Assembly: GCA_043788365.1 (NCBI GenBank)
Contig: JAYVTZ010000005.1
Location: 13,249 to 77,248 of the forward strand
Length of the DNA stretch: 64,000 nucleotides
Direction: 5' to 3'
Source of the DNA: Burkholderiaceae bacterium
GTDB lineage: Bacteria > Patescibacteriota > Saccharimonadia > Saccharimonadales > AQU-01
A program made the translations under genes and the position numbers. The notes beneath the pieces are model-generated. The model did no database searches, had not been told where the DNA came from, and saw nothing but the letters and a program-made list of their open reading frames with translations. Below are positions 3,092-58,500 of this stretch, one piece after another (position 1 is the stretch's first letter; every line of letters begins with the position of its first letter).

Positions 3092-3620
3092 GTCAGATTA
3101 TTGACTGGTCGCGTCATTCGAAAGAATGCCGAGGAAAGTCCGGGCAACACAGGGATATACTGTCGCTAACGGCGACCGGGGGTAACCCCAGGGAAAGTGC
3201 CACAGAAACGAAACCGCCTAAGCAGCCTTAGGGCTGACGGTAAGGATGAAACGAGTGAGGTAAGAGCTCACAGCATCTCATGGTGACATGAGACGAAGGT
3301 AAACCCAGTACGTTGCAAGGAGATATGTCTCAAGGCGCTCCTTTTGGCTCAAGTTATTGGCTAGATGGTTGCTGATGAGTATTCACAGATTGGTTGGACA
3401 CGCCGCAGGCGTACCAAATTGGTACATCGAGGACGTGAACGAGCAAGCTGGGGATGCTCATCGGTGACCAGACCCATTAAGTTGAGCGGAAAGGAGCGCC
3501 ACAGGCGTCCCGCCGAGGCAATTCACAAAACCCGCTTGAGCCTAAGGGCAACTTTAGGCCTAGATAGATGATCAGTACTCATGTAAATGAGGACAGAACC
3601 CGGCTTACAGATAGTCTGAC
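3092..3620 (+). ncRNA. rnpB: RNase P RNA (bacterial type A-like, enlarged)
   Basis: Universal motifs GAGGAAAGTCCGGGC (3131-3145 region) and ACAGAACCCGGCTTA (3593-3607 region). GCTTGAGCC...CCTAGATAGATGA resembles the E. coli P15-P18 region. Terminal P1 pairing is GTCAGATTAT/ATAGTCTGAC. Confidence 0.85.
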
Positions 3621-3628
3621 AAAATATA

Positions 3629-12010: not shown

Positions 12011-13855
12011 TTAAAATGAGGTCTTATTGACTCTTGATTTGGCTTCATTAGCGACCGTCGACAGAAATTCCTCTATGGCTACAGCTTTGTGCTCTGGCTG
12101 AACTTCCAAATCTTTGCGGATTCGCGGCATTAGGTCGCCACCGGCTAGTTCCTTCTCGCCAATGACTACCGTATAGGGTACTTTCCACATCTCGGCGGCG
12201 CGGATTTTCTTACCGACTGATTCGTTGTCGTTGTCGACTTCGACTCTTACACCTAGTTCGTTTGCCTTGTCAGCCATTTTCTTAGCAAACTCAACCGTCG
12301 CATCTTCCTGATTAACAGTAATCAGTCTGACCTGCTCGGGCGCTAGCCAAACCGGGAACTTACCAGCAGTGTGTTCGATGTAAACTGACAAAAATCGCTC
12401 AAACGAACCCAGTAGCGCCTTATGAATCATGACCGGCCGTTGCATCGAACCATCAGCGGCGGCATATTCTAATTGGAAGCGCTCCGGTTGAACAAAATCT
12501 AGCTGTTCGGTCGCCAATTGCCACTCACGGCCAAGGGCATCAGTCGCCATAATGTCGATTTTAGGACCATAGAAAGCTGCCTCACCGACACCTACAAAGT
12601 AATCAAGTTCGAGTTTCTTGGCGACGTCCTCAAGAGTTTTCTGGGCGCTATCCCAAAGGTCTTTCTCGCCTAAATATTTATCAGAATCGTCACGGAAACT
12701 TAGGCGGGCCCGCCACTTTAGTCCAAAGACTTTATACATATCCTGAATCATCGTCATGATAGATGTAAATTCCTCCTCAATCTGATCAACTCTACAAAAT
12801 ACGTGAGCGTCATCTTGAGTAGCACCACGTACTCTTGATAAGCCGTGTAGCTCACCATTCTTTTCGTCACGATAAACTACGGTGTTCTCCATGTATCTTA
12901 TCGGTAAATCACGGTAGCTTCGCGGCCTAGATGCGTAAATCTGGGTATGGTGCGGGCAATTCATCGGTTTCATCATGAACTCGTCATCAGACTCATAACT
13001 TGTGACCGTGAAACGTTCTGGATATTTGTCGAAGTGACCTGAAGTTTTATATAGATCAACCTTGGCAATATGAGGAATGGCAACTTTTTGATAACCGGCC
13101 TGCTTTTGCAATTCTTGCGAGAAAGCGCCAATCTCATCTCTTAAGATTGTGCCTCTAGGTGTAAATAACGGTAGTCCTGGTCCGACTAAATCTGAGAATA
13201 CAAACAAATCAAGCTCTTGACCCAGTTTGCGGTGATCACGCTTCTTGGCTTCTTCGAGCATTTCAAGATGAATTCTTAGTTCTTTTTCATTATTAAAGGC
13301 TATACCGTAAAGTCTCTGCATCTGAGCATTTTTGTCATTACCGCGCCAATAAGCACCACTCACACGCATTAATTTGAATGCCCCGACTTTACCGGTTGAT
13401 TCAAGGTGTGGACCTCGACATAGATCTGTAAAATCACCATTAGTATAGAAAGAAACTCTGTCTACTTGAGCTTCGCCGCCACTAATTGTACCCAGTTCAT
13501 CAGCGTCTAAATCCTTAGCAACCGTTGTTCCAGCCCTTTTGAGGTCATTTAACAGCTCTTCCTTATAAGGCTGGTGTTTTTCCTTCGCCCAGGCAATCGC
13601 CTCGTCTATCGGCTTTTCTGTGCGTTCAAACGGTTGATTATCAGCTATGACCTTCCTCATCTCGTCCTCAATCCGGCTGAGGTCCTCTTCTGAGATGCTT
13701 TGCTCGCCTAGATCAATATCATAATAAAAACCATGCTCAACCACTGGGCCAACGCCAAATTTAGCCTCTGGCCAAAGGTGTTGAACAGCCGTAGCGGTAA
13801 TATGCGCCAAACTATGTCTCATTGCATGTAAATTGTCATCTTGATTGTCTGCCAT
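12011..13855 (-). CDS. thrS: Threonyl-tRNA synthetase
   Basis: Full-length ThrRS-like sequence with second-additional-domain HxxxH (MRHSLAHITA), class II core (FRDE..., GATQDDAHVF), and anticodon-binding C-terminus. Confidence 0.95.
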   Translation of the reverse strand: MADNQDDNLHAMRHSLAHITATAVQHLWPEAKFGVGPVVEHGFYYDIDLGEQSISEEDLSRIEDEMRKVIADNQPFERTEKPIDEAIAWAKEKHQPYKEELLNDLKRAGTTVAKDLDADELGTISGGEAQVDRVSFYTNGDFTDLCRGPHLESTGKVGAFKLMRVSGAYWRGNDKNAQMQRLYGIAFNNEKELRIHLEMLEEAKKRDHRKLGQELDLFVFSDLVGPGLPLFTPRGTILRDEIGAFSQELQKQAGYQKVAIPHIAKVDLYKTSGHFDKYPERFTVTSYESDDEFMMKPMNCPHHTQIYASRPRSYRDLPIRYMENTVVYRDEKNGELHGLSRVRGATQDDAHVFCRVDQIEEEFTSIMTMIQDMYKVFGLKWRARLSFRDDSDKYLGEKDLWDSAQKTLEDVAKKLELDYFVGVGEAAFYGPKIDIMATDALGREWQLATEQLDFVQPERFQLEYAAADGSMQRPVMIHKALLGSFERFLSVYIEHTAGKFPVWLAPEQVRLITVNQEDATVEFAKKMADKANELGVRVEVDNDNESVGKKIRAAEMWKVPYTVVIGEKELAGGDLMPRIRKDLEVQPEHKAVAIEEFLSTVANEAKSRVNKTSF

Positions 13856-13860
13856 TTCTT

Positions 13861-14047
13861 GGCCTCCTTGTTTATAGAAATAAAAATCGCGCTAACTTTA
13901 GTCGTATGACATCTGTTATGCGCGTCTCGGGTCCGACATGATTGTCAGACGGTTCCACCGGACTTTCACTCATGATACTCGTGTTATCGCACACTGTAAC
14001 CGCTGGCGAAGCTCCATGGTTGGTGAGTCCACTTCAAAGCTTAAATA
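13861..14047 (-). promoter_or_regulatory. Candidate T-box riboswitch leader of thrS (Thr ACC specifier, antiterminator/terminator)
   Basis: In thrS sense: T-box core GUCCGGUGGAACCGUC. Antiterminator A1 13963-13958/13930-13924, 7-nt bulge UGGAACC 13957-13951, A2 13950-13944/13937-13931. Terminator CGCGCAUAAC...GUUAGCGCG + AUUUUUAUUU (13924-13878) lies just upstream of SD AAGGAGG. ACC followed by A sits in a hairpin loop at 14024-14021. Confidence 0.55.
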
Positions 14048-14114
14048 CAGTTTACCACAGTTACATAGTCTAAATTAAACCAATCGGAGGCTAAACACGC
14101 AGCGGTAAACTTCG

Positions 14115-14149: not shown

Positions 14150-14664
14150 ACTCTCTGTTGTTTTAAATTCACTTCCGGTACCAAGCCAAATAAAAAACTG
14201 GTTAAAAGTTCTCGCAATTACTTTCAACCAGTTAATCTTTTGTTTCTACCCTATTTTTGGGGCTCAAAAACACCTTTGCAAAACGTCACCTTCAGATAGC
14301 TTACCAGCATAAGTACTATAAGGCTAGTACTTTAGTGTTGTTTTTTATGCATTATTAACTGTTCATAAGTTTATCTCATATATGACAAGCTGTATTATCC
14401 TGCCACACTGCTTATGGTATATTCCGCCTGTTCTCTTAATTCAAAATTGCGACAGTTTGTTCGCTTTTTTATAAATCAGCCTTGATGATAAGGGGTAAAT
14501 CAGGTATATTTAACTTTGTCCTTGGTCTAACCCAATTGATTAAACCAAGCGAGCTCGCTCGCTGTTTGAGCAATTGAGAGGAGATGGCTTGATGTGATGA
14601 CAAGAATTGACGGGCAAATTTATTTTGCCGACGATTCAGTTATCGTACCATTACACATCGACGA

Positions 14665-29575: not shown

Positions 29576-29678
29576 AGTCGTCTCTCCTTGTATATGGATT
29601 TAGTTGGTATTTCACGGCAACCAAAAAGCCTGCCGCTAAGCGATGACTTGCGCCACCCATACCAGTTTCCCGATATGA

Positions 29679-29724
29679 CCATATACAACAGTGAACCTAA
29701 CGACAGGCTGTTTGTTGTATATGG
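29679..29724. promoter_or_regulatory. 12-bp perfect inverted repeat in a divergent promoter region (candidate operator)
   Basis: CCATATACAACA (29679-29690) pairs with TGTTGTATATGG (29713-29724), with additional inner complementarity. Confidence 0.45.
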
Positions 29725-29852
29725 GTTTATGGCCATGCCCACTAAGTAGGTTTAGGTCATACTAACTTTTAACACTTTGTGTGTTACCCAGAGTATAAAC
29801 CACAAACGTACTCCTTAGCTATATCTGTAGTGTAGAATTTAGGTACACGACC

Positions 29853-34329: not shown

Positions 34330-34404
34330 GCCGAAGTAGCTCAGTGGTAGAGCAGTACTTTCGTAAAGTAAAGGTCGCGGGTCCAACTCCCGCCTTCGGC
34401 TCCA
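34330..34404 (+). tRNA. tRNA-Thr (anticodon CGT), CCA encoded; unusual T-loop TCCAACT
   Basis: GCCGAAG/CTTCGGC acceptor, GCTC/GAGC D-stem, anticodon loop TTCGTAA, T-arm GCGGG-TCCAACT-CCCGC (C at position 55), U73. Confidence 0.85.
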
Positions 34405-55519: not shown

Positions 55520-58500
55520 TTAAAGGACTGGCGGTAAGCCCGTAAAGTTATCCAGTTTAGTTGTACCCGTAGTCAAATTCAGGGCTTTTTGATTTGGTGT
55601 GGCAATCCAGAATGATGGGTCAAAAATAAACTTTTCGGCTGGATTGGTCGATGTCGAGTTCTCTGCCGCCGGTGCAACACCAACACCACCATGAGTACGC
55701 TGGAACTTAATATTCTGAGCCGTAAAGGCGCCACGAATTGTGAGTTCGTTGTCACAGCTAGTGGCTTTAACGGCATCAGGGATAGAGTTGAACTTACTAG
55801 TACAGGTTAGGATATTGCCACCGGCGTTAGCAACCGGCAATGTAGCCGGGCAATACTTAACCGGTAAGGCTATAAACCAGCCATCTACCTCCGTAACGTT
55901 CTTATCGATAAAGATATTGCCACAGACAACCATGGTGAAGTACGGAATATCAGACGGCTGAGCCCATAGCGTGGCCGGGTATTTAATATCGCTCAGGATT
56001 TCCACATCACCATCAACGAAGGTGGTTACATTATGGTTCAAGGTAACAACATTCGGAGCCACGTTAGTATTTGGCGCCGAAGGTGCTCCATAAACCACTG
56101 GGTAGGCCGAAATCGCATAACAGTGGTCGGATGACGATAAATATGTCTGGTCGCTAATCTCACCACAACCGCTGGTCCCCTTGCCGCTACTACTGTTAGT
56201 ACTGGCATCAATATCTATCTGTGGCGTTCCGGCTAGGTTAGTTATCTGAATAAGTCTAAGCTCATTCTTATTGGTATTATTTGCTATGTGCTTTATTGTC
56301 GTCGGGTCGCGCAAATCGTTCCAATAGTTGGGGATACAAGCGACTCCACCAAAGTTACCGCCGAGTGGGGCTCCTGCCAAGTTATTGTTAGCAAAGGTTA
56401 GTCCTGTCGGCGACAGTGGCGTGCTAGTACGCAGCGTCGCCGAGGCAAACCCATCAATTATACCGTTAGCTACAGCGGCATATTGTGTAGATGCACCTCT
56501 CCAGCTACCATCGCTTAGAGTCTTTCCAGAAGTCTTAAGTATGCCACTCCCGCCGGCAACACAAGCACCAGTGGTGCTGACAAATTCAGCACCCGACCTG
56601 ACATCGCCACCAAAGACTTTGAAGTATGGCCGCTTGATTACATTAATTGTGCCGGTGCAAACCTTAGACGGCACTGGGAATGGTACTGGTACTGGTGTTG
56701 GTGACGGCACTGGTGTTGATTTTGGAGCACTCTTTGGGGTTGGAGTGTTCTTGACGTTAGCGGGAGTAGTTTTTGGCGTGGCACCAGTCGGTGTGGCCTT
56801 TGGTGTACCGGTTTGTGGGGGTGGTGAACTCTTTGGAGTAGCAGTTGGTGTTGGGGTGCCTTTCGGCGTAGTGACTGGGGTTGGGGCTGGGGTACCACCA
56901 CCGCCACTTACACCAAGCACCGCCGGAACTGACACCGTCCAGGTTACTGGTACTTGGGCCGGTGCTCCAGGCATGGTTGCAGTTATATTAGAACTAGTCG
57001 CCGATTGTCCACCGACAAGCGGTGGCACTGGTACAACCGTAGGATTAGGTGCAATAGCAGCGCCATTTACCGTCACTGAGACCTGTGCATCAGTAATATC
57101 AGTGTTAGTTGAGAACCCTACCACCAAATTTGTCAATGTATCGCCAACGTCGGCATCAGTAGGAGTGACGTTACCACAAACAATCGGTGAAATCGGCGTA
57201 ACTTCATACTTACCACTACATATATCTGTCGCCCAGCCTACCCCAGGTATGACTAGTCCCCAATTAAAGTCGACGTCGTGCTGATATTTATTCGGTGCAA
57301 ACATATCATACGCAGCTAAAGGACCATTTGTGGTTGATTTAGTGGCCGTCAAGAATGTCAGTGTCCCATCCGCCGCAATCGGACCACCCGCCCGTAAATA
57401 GGATTTATCACTTGATGTTAGTAGATAGTTGGTGATGTCTCCCGAAGGCACCTCATTACCCCAACCAATATCGTTAACACCTATGGTGTAGCCATTGGCA
57501 TTAGCAACAGGCACACTGAAGCCGATTTTGTCGCCAGGGTGGATAACAGTCGGATCGGCGGCATTGGTTATACTAAATACCGTAACATTTCCGCAACTTG
57601 GTATTGGTCCGCAGTCATATGATGCCGCCGGACCAGTCCCCGCCATCAATACCTGCAGTGAGTTCACGTCTCCGACTCCCGTCACGTTGGCAATATAGGC
57701 CGACGTACTAACTATGGTCGTCGTTCCACCAGGAACATTATTACCTCCTGGGAAGTACCAAGTGTCATCATTGCCACCATCAATTAATAGTCCGGGCGGT
57801 GGCACTTTCCAGCCAAGATGCGCACCTGTCTTCCTATCAACCTCTTCAAGTGTTACTCTCATATTATTTTGATAATTGCCGTGATCGGCATCATAGATGG
57901 CGACGTGACCCTGTATAACTGAGCCTAGACTACAGTTACTGGCAAAGGCAATTGTTTCGTTCCACTCTATCCCGCTCGCATTCCAAGCATCGATGGTTGA
58001 GTAGGCCACGCCAGTTTGCGGACATGAAAATGGATAAGTTGTCAGTTCACACACTCCTGGGTATAGCGACTGATTCAATACACCAATTAATACACCTGGG
58101 TTCTGTCCGTCGAGCCGATAATGGTTAACATACCAGCTCCAGCCATCAGGATGAGGCCTTATCGCTTGGCCAACAAATAAGTATATTAATCTGTCTTTAT
58201 CAACCAGCGTTGGTGATGCTGTAAAGGTATAGTCTATGTCTGGTGAGGTGGCACAGCTAGCATCATCAGAAGATTTTAGGGCACCAACTAGCCCCTTCGC
58301 GGTTTTGTCAGGATTGAGAGAAAGAAAACTAAACCAGGTGGTTGCCGTATAGCCATAGGTCACTCTGCCAGCAGGTCTATCTGCTGCCGTGGAGTCACAA
58401 GCATCTGTTATTCTGATTGTAATGTTTGTGCCGGCTTGGGCGACTGGCACATAGACTGCAATGTAGTTCATCGCACCCTTCATGCATCTTGTCGTGTCTG

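Follow-up and report, generated by a model that had tools for sequence, protein, structure and literature searches.

Results

A compact T-box-like leader precedes thrS

The DNA analysed here, a stretch of 64,000 nt from contig JAYVTZ010000005.1 of a Saccharibacteria genome (referred to as the window), carries the threonyl-tRNA synthetase gene thrS on its minus strand. The leader of this gene is likely to be a tRNA-Thr-sensing riboswitch of the T-box family which controls thrS by transcription attenuation and has a compact architecture typical of candidate phyla radiation (CPR) bacteria. Four leader elements were located at 14042-13878 (-), directly 5' of thrS: a K-turn hairpin, a pseudoknot domain, a bulged helix, and a hairpin with a U-tract. 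The element in the window was confirmed to be real, conserved and, as an assembly, more than a chance occurrence. All the sequences below are read on the minus strand and the positions follow the numbering of the window. The features of the leader, together with the gene and the tRNA discussed with it, are the following, with the evidence given in brackets.

14049..14059 (-): promoter-like extended -10 element TGTGGTAAACT, about 7 nt 5' of Stem I (sequence)
14009..14042 (-): ultrashort Stem I of 34 nt, composed of a K-turn, a 4-bp helix and a 9-nt loop (covariation, RNAalifold)
14021..14024 (-): predicted specifier ACC (14024-14022) followed by the purine A (14021) (loop codon comparison)
13969..14008 (-): linker domain, proposed H-type pseudoknot (hairpin covariation, compensated S1 variation)
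13964..13973 (-): purine-rich linker AUGAGUGAAA, family consensus AAGAGUAAA (conserved alignment columns)
13924..13963 (-): T-box or antiterminator, in the order A1-bulge-A2 (sequence match, covariation)
13878..13924 (-): intrinsic terminator with U-tract (folding)
13853..13869 (-): Shine-Dalgarno sequence (SD) AAGGAGG at 13869-13863 and thrS start codon ATG at 13855-13853 (sequence, list of open reading frames)
12011..13855 (-): thrS, threonyl-tRNA synthetase (ThrRS) of 614 aa, the gene under the presumed control (Pfam tRNA_SAD, tRNA-synt_2b, HGTP_anticodon)
34330..34404 (+): tRNA-Thr(CGU) with U73 and encoded CCA (tRNA scan)

In the relatives, the promoter-like element reads TGnTAtACT and stands at equal spacing from Stem I; the transcript would start at about 14043-14045. 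The ThrRS of the window is 80% identical to Saccharimonadales ThrRS, the closest sequences belonging to metagenome-assembled genomes (MAGs) of Candidatus Saccharimonadales / Saccharibacteria, and remoter homologues are present in other CPR lineages. No other aminoacyl-tRNA synthetase (aaRS) was detected with Pfam among ten of the window's 21 open reading frames (ORFs) of at least 330 aa, thrS apart.

Conservation and covariation of the leader

The comparison was based on 80 fetched thrS loci, given below by their L numbers; the model search covered 81 sources including the window, which amount to 616 kb when both strands are counted. Sixteen related thrS leaders were aligned with MAFFT, and the covariance model R1 was built from this seed alignment with a structure comprising the lower and upper helices of Stem I, the linker hairpin, A1 and A2. 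R1 matched 37 of the 81 sources, exactly once in each and always immediately 5' of thrS on the thrS strand, and gave no match elsewhere in the 616 kb. The thrS leader of the window scored 98.9 bits, the next best score in the window being 10.9 bits with the filters off, and 17 Saccharimonadia-type leaders from outside the seed scored 49-91 bits. Among the carriers are MAGs with the labels Daviesbacteria (L062) and Kaiserbacteria (L072), of which L072 had a marginal R1 score. The Dojkabacteria locus L063 has GUGGAACC 5' of thrS, yet it was not among the R1 matches. A simple scan located G-UGGAACC some 100 nt 5' of the thrS start codon in about half of the fetched loci, L062, L063 and L072 among them.

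In the seed alignment, 87.7% of the cells were paired, compared with 31-37% when the partners were slid by 1-3 columns, and both-side changes were observed at 22 of 27 pairs. The alignment of all 37 sequences, which was fitted to R1 and thereby favours the structure, had 91.6% of the cells paired compared with 30-41% in the slid controls, both-side changes at 22 of 24 pairs, and observed values that were reached in none of 500 shuffles; the seed alignment made with MAFFT only is in agreement with it. Both helices of Stem I, the linker hairpin and A2 were independently recovered by RNAalifold.

A first-pass annotation of the window, made from its sequence, had placed 5' of thrS a T-box antiterminator and a terminal loop bearing the Thr specifier, and had suggested the alignment of thrS leaders from related genomes for compensatory changes. 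All the strings it quoted (A1, the UGGAACC bulge, A2, the terminator, the SD and the hairpin) were located where it had put them, and the arrangement proved to be conserved and covarying in the 37 thrS leaders, which come from several CPR lineages; the compensatory changes are those at the 22 of 24 pairs given above. According to the same annotation, the proposal was to be dropped if a covariance-model match was missing and, jointly, the bulge and the ACC loop were not conserved. The match to the Rfam T-box family was indeed missing, but both the bulge and the ACC loop are conserved in the orthologous leaders, and so the proposal was retained.

The short motifs alone are less informative than the assembly. 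The bare GGTGGNACC is expected about 1.06 times per window, i.e. no more than by chance. A second GGTGGTACC at 56891-56899 (-) lies inside a 1063-aa Pro/Thr-rich ORF and was rejected as a chance match.

A metagenome scan with the narrow pattern AAGTCCGGTGGBACC...CCGAGAC was directed at leaders with a non-A bulge position, i.e. at other amino acids. It resulted in six matches, all from organisms of about 57-71% GC, four of which look like chance matches in coding regions, and no CPR member of other specificity was found with that narrow pattern. The other two, on metagenome contigs of about 70% GC (L081, 283-371, and L083), are a weak T-box-like leader, AAAAAGUCCGG-UGGGACC-...-CCGAGAC, which scored 17.6 bits with R1 and belongs to an unrelated high-GC organism.

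Antiterminator and its match to tRNA-Thr

Helix A1 pairs GUCCGG (13963-13958) with CCGAGAC (13930-13924), leaving A13927 bulged. The 7-nt bulge UGGAACC occupies 13957-13951, and A2 is formed by GUCUGACA/UGUCGGAC with the loop AUCA, the two strands being GUCUGAC(A) at 13950-13943 and (U)GUCGGAC at 13938-13931. The A2 helix had been given 7 bp at first; it is present and can be extended to 8 bp. PMC11297988 gives the T-box 14-mer as AGGGUGGNACCGCG, and the segment GGUGGAACCG agrees with it at 10 consecutive positions.

Both-side changes were detected at 9 of the 11 A1/A2 pairs (5 of 7 in A1 and 4 of 4 in A2). The sequence of A2 varies widely among the loci and its pairing was always kept. A1 was found in the forms GUC-CGG/CCG(A)GAC, GUCGAGG/CCGAGAC with tandem G.A, G(A)UUUCGG/CCGAAAC, GCA(C)UCGG/CCGAUGC, and GUCUGG/CCAGAC. 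RNAalifold returned a different register of A1, in which the invariant UGG of the bulge is paired with CCG; this register was set aside and the classical one kept because the outer A1 pairs covary in the classical register. The UGGAAC of the bulge was constant among the leaders examined except L064 (UGGGAC). The thrS loci L017, L043 and L050 carry UGGAACA, and L079 carries UGGAAAC.

A separate arrangement was observed in the more distant CPR leaders L064, L072, L074 and L075, where, about 100-230 nt 5' of thrS, ACC is located in the terminal hairpin loop CUACCAA. In these loci the specifier hairpin seems to be one arm of a multi-branch junction, which ACAGAnnUU / AAUCUGU closes, and the overlap of the terminator with the antiterminator is complete. 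The UGGG bulge of L064 predicts C73, or a G.U pair with U73.

The UGGA of the bulge is complementary to the U73-CCA end of tRNA-Thr(CGU) in all three genes (window, L038, L039). The first-pass annotation had predicted a U73 discriminator from UGGA and had noted U73 in the tRNA-Thr at 34330-34404; U73 was confirmed in this tRNA and is present in those of the two further loci. The anticodon of the window tRNA-Thr is CGU and it is therefore not the isoacceptor reading ACC. The predicted ligand is tRNA-Thr(GGU), the reader of ACC and ACU, which would likewise have U73 as its discriminator.

Stem I and the specifier

Stem I of the window reads AAGC-UUU-GA-A-GUGG-ACUCACCAA-CCAU-G-GA-GCUU. Its lower part consists of the C-stem AAGC/GCUU, the 3-nt bulge UUU and the tandem G.A/A.G, its upper helix is the 4-bp GUGG/CCAU, and the 9-nt terminal specifier loop ACUCACCAA is situated at 14028-14020. 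Compensatory changes were found at all 8 pairs of Stem I, with 94-99% of the cells paired in the alignments, and the GA dinucleotides of both strands were kept in about 33 of 37 leaders. The predicted K-turn at the base has the arrangement and the orientation of that in T-box Stem I. Compared with the hairpin described in the first-pass annotation, the GUGG/CCAU stem and the ACC loop were recovered, and the 6-bp lower stem is replaced by the K-turn with AAGC/GCUU.

The loop codon was ACC in 34 leaders and ACU in two (L040, L056), which corresponds to Thr in every case. The base after the specifier codon was A, or G in two leaders. The codon is located in the terminal loop and not in an internal loop.

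Linker domain

Right after Stem I the family has 3-6 nt, mostly CGU, which are complementary to the loop of the linker hairpin, mostly ACG-UAA. In the window this helix, S1, pairs CGC (14008-14006) with GCG (13990-13988). The linker hairpin pairs GUUAC (14000-13996) with GUAUC (13978-13974) and is extended by GUGU (13994-13991) with ACAC (13984-13981); all five of its pairs covary, and the hairpin was the one recovered by RNAalifold. The compensated variants of S1 were CGU/ACG, CGC/GCG (window and L017), CUUGC/GCAAG (L016), CUAG/CUAG (L014 and L058), AUACC/GGUAU (L010), and CGUCU/AGACG (L022). The linker loop, GCGAUAA in the window and CG(U/A)(U/A)A in the family (CGUAA or CGAUAA), resembles an F-box, which in M. 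tuberculosis ileS is CGUCA (PMC11297988).

When the S1 pseudoknot was subjected to a shuffle test sequence by sequence, most sequences gave a non-significant result, owing to short helices and crudely set region boundaries. The pseudoknot derives from the cross-species compensation only and is therefore called proposed; the evidence favours an H-type pseudoknot in the linker but falls short of proof. In L001, L007, L022, L035, L046 and L054 the stretch between AAGAG and AAGUC contains an additional hairpin resembling Stem III, which the window copy does not have.

Terminator and proposed mechanism

The terminator stem of the window, CGCGC-A-UAAC...GUUA-GCGCG (13924-13888), encloses an inner GUC/GAC hairpin and is followed by A13887 and the U-tract UUUUUAUUU (13886-13878). 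It was missed by a consensus terminator scan because its loop is longer than 8 nt. A hairpin with a U-tract after the antiterminator was present in nearly all of the 39 leaders folded. In L035, L040 and L058 the U-tract detection misplaced the fold window, and their downstream sequence shows a hairpin and a U-tract too. In leaders of the Saccharimonadia type, antiterminator and terminator share about 4-5 nt: the terminator is closed at its foot by pairs between GUCU(U/C) or G-UUUU and the conserved GAGAC from CCGAGAC. In most leaders 4-7 of the 7 nucleotides of the A1 3' strand were paired in the terminator folds. In L051, L052, L055, L063, L064 and L075 the 5' arm of the terminator is the entire antiterminator 3' strand, as in classical T-boxes.

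According to the proposed mechanism, transcription would start a few nucleotides before Stem I, and Stem I, as judged from the covariation, would fold into the K-turn and the 4-bp helix and present ACC-A in its terminal loop. By analogy with known T-boxes, the anticodon of tRNA-Thr(GGU) would pair with ACC, and the small pseudoknot and the purine-rich linker would join Stem I to the T-box. The 5'-UGGA-3' of the bulge, whose complementarity to U73-C-C-A was observed, would bind this free end of an uncharged tRNA. The pairing with the tRNA would stabilise A1 (GUCCGG/CCGAGAC) and withhold GAGAC from the terminator base beside the U-tract; with GAGAC held in A1, RNA polymerase would therefore read through into thrS. 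With charged tRNA, A1 would not be stabilised, the terminator would close fully, and transcription would stop at 13886-13878, before the SD. In contrast to canonical T-boxes, the exchange would be confined to the 4-5 pairs at the bottom of the terminator, and the upper hairpin would be present in both states. The portion for decoding and sensing amounts to about 120 nt in the window copy and about 93 nt in L051.

Results that weigh against the assignment

Several results speak against a T-box that controls transcription, the first of them being the silence of the standard model. RF00230 of Rfam 15 had no match in the window at the gathering score, nor at E<=10 on 801 nt, where an 11-bit match to an unrelated family was still listed. 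Likewise, it had no match in 20 related loci at the gathering score, nor in 8 loci at E<=10, and no Rfam 15 family matches the leader region. The silence of RF00230 was read as a limit of the model and not as counter-evidence because the orthologous conservation is strong. TBDB relied on RF00230 and a class II model; the latter was run against Actinobacteria reference genomes and also on those RF00230 matches whose Stem I is truncated (PMC7778990).

The second group concerns the architecture. No distal platform of Stem I (AG bulge and distal loop) was found in the Saccharimonadia-type members, in which nothing extends beyond the specifier loop; the caveat of the first-pass annotation that no platform could be identified thus applies to the whole family. 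Known short-Stem-I T-boxes are likewise without a distal platform, and the platform does not define the wider T-box family. The S-turn helix of Stem II is absent from the leader, with only about 40 nt between Stem I and the T-box. The description as canonical-looking therefore holds for the antiterminator and not for the rest of the leader. According to a 2020 review, transcriptional T-boxes generally require a long Stem I platform and translational ones can dispense with it (PMC7583486). Furthermore, about half of the related thrS loci are without the element, including the close relatives L002-L004, L006 and L008, and a tRNA scan of the window and 60 loci detected no tRNA-Thr(GGU) gene.

The third point is the strength of the switch in the window copy. 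The terminator and the antiterminator share one strong pair, C13924-G13888, and the earlier caveat of an overlap of about 1 nt was accurate for the strong stem of this copy. Past the bulged A13887, GAGA (13928-13925) and the first Us form four weak pairs (A-U, G.U, A-U, G.U). The calculated energy of A1, A2 and the terminator minus its bottom pair, which is the minimum-energy structure, was -28.6 kcal/mol, and that of A2 with the full extended terminator was -25.4 kcal/mol. As the antiterminator is compatible with a terminator lacking the bottom C-G pair, the thermodynamic switch is weak in the window copy. The confidence in its exact attenuation mechanism is lower owing to this minimal strand exchange.

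Alternative explanations

The weak overlap could mean that the family is a genuine T-box and the window copy is weakened or decayed, its terminator being largely independent of tRNA or its A1 constitutive, which would leave thrS at a fixed level of transcription. The strong terminator stem sharing nothing but C13924 with A1, the antiterminator with the shortened terminator as the state of minimum energy, and a 3' arm followed by A-UUUU and not by the UCUU of the relatives are all in line with decay, as are the GAGAC:GUCU(C/U) overlaps of L005, L007, L027 and L057, which contain G-C pairs. On the other hand, all the conserved T-box positions are intact in the window copy, and its R1 score is the 98.9 bits given above. 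The same weak overlap of GUUUU type is common to L001, L019, L022 and L036 and is therefore a recurrent design and not a one-off defect. In addition, intrinsic terminators are most sensitive at the bottom pairs beside the U-tract, and these are the pairs at stake here; the switch of the window would have to act via the last pair(s) next to the U-tract, and probably kinetically. Decay of the window copy was considered unlikely.

Control of translation, as in the actinobacterial T-boxes with a short Stem I, would leave the hairpin and the U-tract unused for termination. All the described T-boxes with an ultrashort Stem I act on translation (PMC7583486), and the start codons of L051 and L052 are about 10 nt away from the 3' hairpin arm, GGGGG, which might mask an SD. 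In the window, however, the 8-nt spacer CUAUAAAC separates the U-tract from AAGGAGG, the SD is unpaired and outside the terminator hairpin, and no segment of the leader is complementary to it. The hallmark of class II, an SD sequestered by an alternative helix, was tested for and is absent from the window leader. Since the SD lies outside all helices, the expression platform is taken to be transcriptional and not an SD sequestrator. The U-tract directly after the hairpin in nearly all the leaders folded points in the same direction, and translational control of the window thrS appears improbable.

A protein operator, i.e. ThrRS binding its own leader as a repressor with an incidental likeness to a T-box, has a precedent in E. 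coli thrS, which is autoregulated via leader hairpins mimicking the anticodon arm of tRNA-Thr, and would suit the confinement of the element to thrS in the R1 search. It is nevertheless very improbable: the loop displays the codon ACC/ACU instead of GGU or CGU, which would look like an anticodon; an operator would give no role to the invariant UGGAACC bulge, flanked by two covarying helices, or to the match of this bulge with U73-CCA; and the platform is a terminator and not an SD-proximal operator.

Other RNA elements in the window

A second conserved unit, designated X, was found at 14186-14345 (-), just 5' of the promoter of the T-box leader. It contains the promoter-like DNA TACTAGCCTTATAGTACT (14329-14312, unique in the window), an RNA with the conserved 5' part GGUGACGUUUUG-CAAAGGUGUUUUU from 14290, a hairpin, and an intrinsic terminator at about 14235-14188 with a UGCGAGA loop. 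Unit X was present in at least 25 of the related thrS loci and invariably had the orientation of thrS. Loci without the T-box have X directly 5' of thrS; in the window the two are in tandem, and in L013, L023 and L054 X and the T-box leader are fused. No Rfam match was obtained for unit X. The separation of X from thrS by 1.3-1.6 kb of inserted DNA in L005 and L012 points to an independent small RNA gene beside tRNA-Val. The terminator loop UGCGAGA, a GAGA tetraloop closed by C-G, is very frequent in the clade and was observed both in T-box terminators (L007, L022, L027) and in X terminators (14216-14210 in the window).

Two other structured RNAs were identified in the window. RNase P RNA of class A at 3093-3623 (+) scored 237 bits and is 531 nt long owing to about 209 nt inserted at a site to which the model assigns 46 nt. 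LOOT RNA (RF03000), a structured RNA with no assigned function, was detected at 29642-29758 (-) with 80.4 bits, well above the gathering score.

Discussion

The leader of thrS is, with good confidence, a tRNA-Thr-sensing relative of the T-boxes. Among the features which define a T-box, the bulge, the predicted specifier, the putative K-turn and the match to the discriminator are present, and the platform and a score in Rfam are missing. Judged by its sequence and covariation, the leader is a T-box of a new structural variant, in which a terminator goes together with a predicted ultrashort Stem I and the Stem II helix is missing. A search of full-text literature, whose coverage is incomplete so that its outcome is absence of evidence only, returned no paper joining T-boxes with Saccharibacteria, the candidate phyla radiation or Patescibacteria.

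The nearest known relatives of the CPR leader are the ultrashort-Stem-I T-boxes of actinobacterial ileS, as in M. tuberculosis and Nocardia farcinica (PMC7583486, PMC11297988). Common to both are the K-turn, predicted in the CPR leader, at the base of a Stem I of about 34 nt, the apical specifier, the lack of an elbow platform, the UGGN bulge between two helices, and, as a prediction for the CPR leader, the regulation of one aaRS gene per genome. A pseudoknot with a CGU-type F-box between the decoding and the discriminator domains would be a further common feature, that of the CPR leader being a proposed one whose homology to the IIA/B pseudoknot is at most possible. In contrast, the actinobacterial ileS leaders hide the SD and act on translation, whereas the CPR leader has an intrinsic terminator and a free SD. 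In the former, the helix of codon and anticodon is also clamped by the S-turn of a long Stem II, described as essential with a truncated Stem I; the CPR leader is without such a Stem II helix. The amino acid and the phylum are different as well, Ile in the Actinobacteria and Thr in the CPR leader.

The thrS/thrZ T-boxes of Bacillus subtilis, of the classical Firmicutes kind (RF00230), have in common with the CPR leader the gene, the logic of the ACC specifier, the bulge, the principle of antiterminator and terminator, and the read-through on uncharged tRNA-Thr, which for the CPR leader is a prediction. They differ in having a long Stem I with the AG bulge and distal loop platform as well as Stems II, IIA/B and III, a terminator whose 5' arm is the whole antiterminator 3' half, and detection by RF00230. 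The glyQS T-box is similarly transcriptional and compact with no Stem II; however, it has a long Stem I with a required platform (PMC7583486) and no IIA/B pseudoknot, and the CPR leader is the reverse, with no platform and with the proposed pseudoknot. The operator of E. coli thrS is also a leader of the same gene that exploits recognition features of tRNA-Thr. It differs in that ThrRS is its binding partner, its fold imitates the anticodon arm, its site of action is the ribosome binding site, and a T-box bulge is lacking.

A further, tentative proposal, held with slightly less than even confidence, is that these leaders form a T-box class of the CPR's own, which would act co-transcriptionally without the elbow platform or the S-turn clamp of Stem II and swap only the last few pairs of the terminator. 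If this is true, the contact with the tRNA elbow would not be a general requirement for transcriptional T-boxes, and the leader would rank as the smallest tRNA-sensing switch in nature, possibly representing the T-box family in a reduced or an early form. The combination of an ultrashort Stem I with a transcription terminator offers a natural test of the view that transcriptional T-boxes need the platform for fast capture of tRNA (PMC7583486). The R1 model provides the means to annotate compact leaders of this kind, and the leader itself is a very small predicted tRNA-binding RNA for structural or engineering work.

Gene regulation in CPR organisms is almost wholly uncharted, and the standard annotation model is blind to the compact class. 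The leader described here would extend T-box control by tRNA sensing to the candidate phyla radiation, namely to Saccharimonadia, with related forms in MAGs of Microgenomates and Parcubacteria type.

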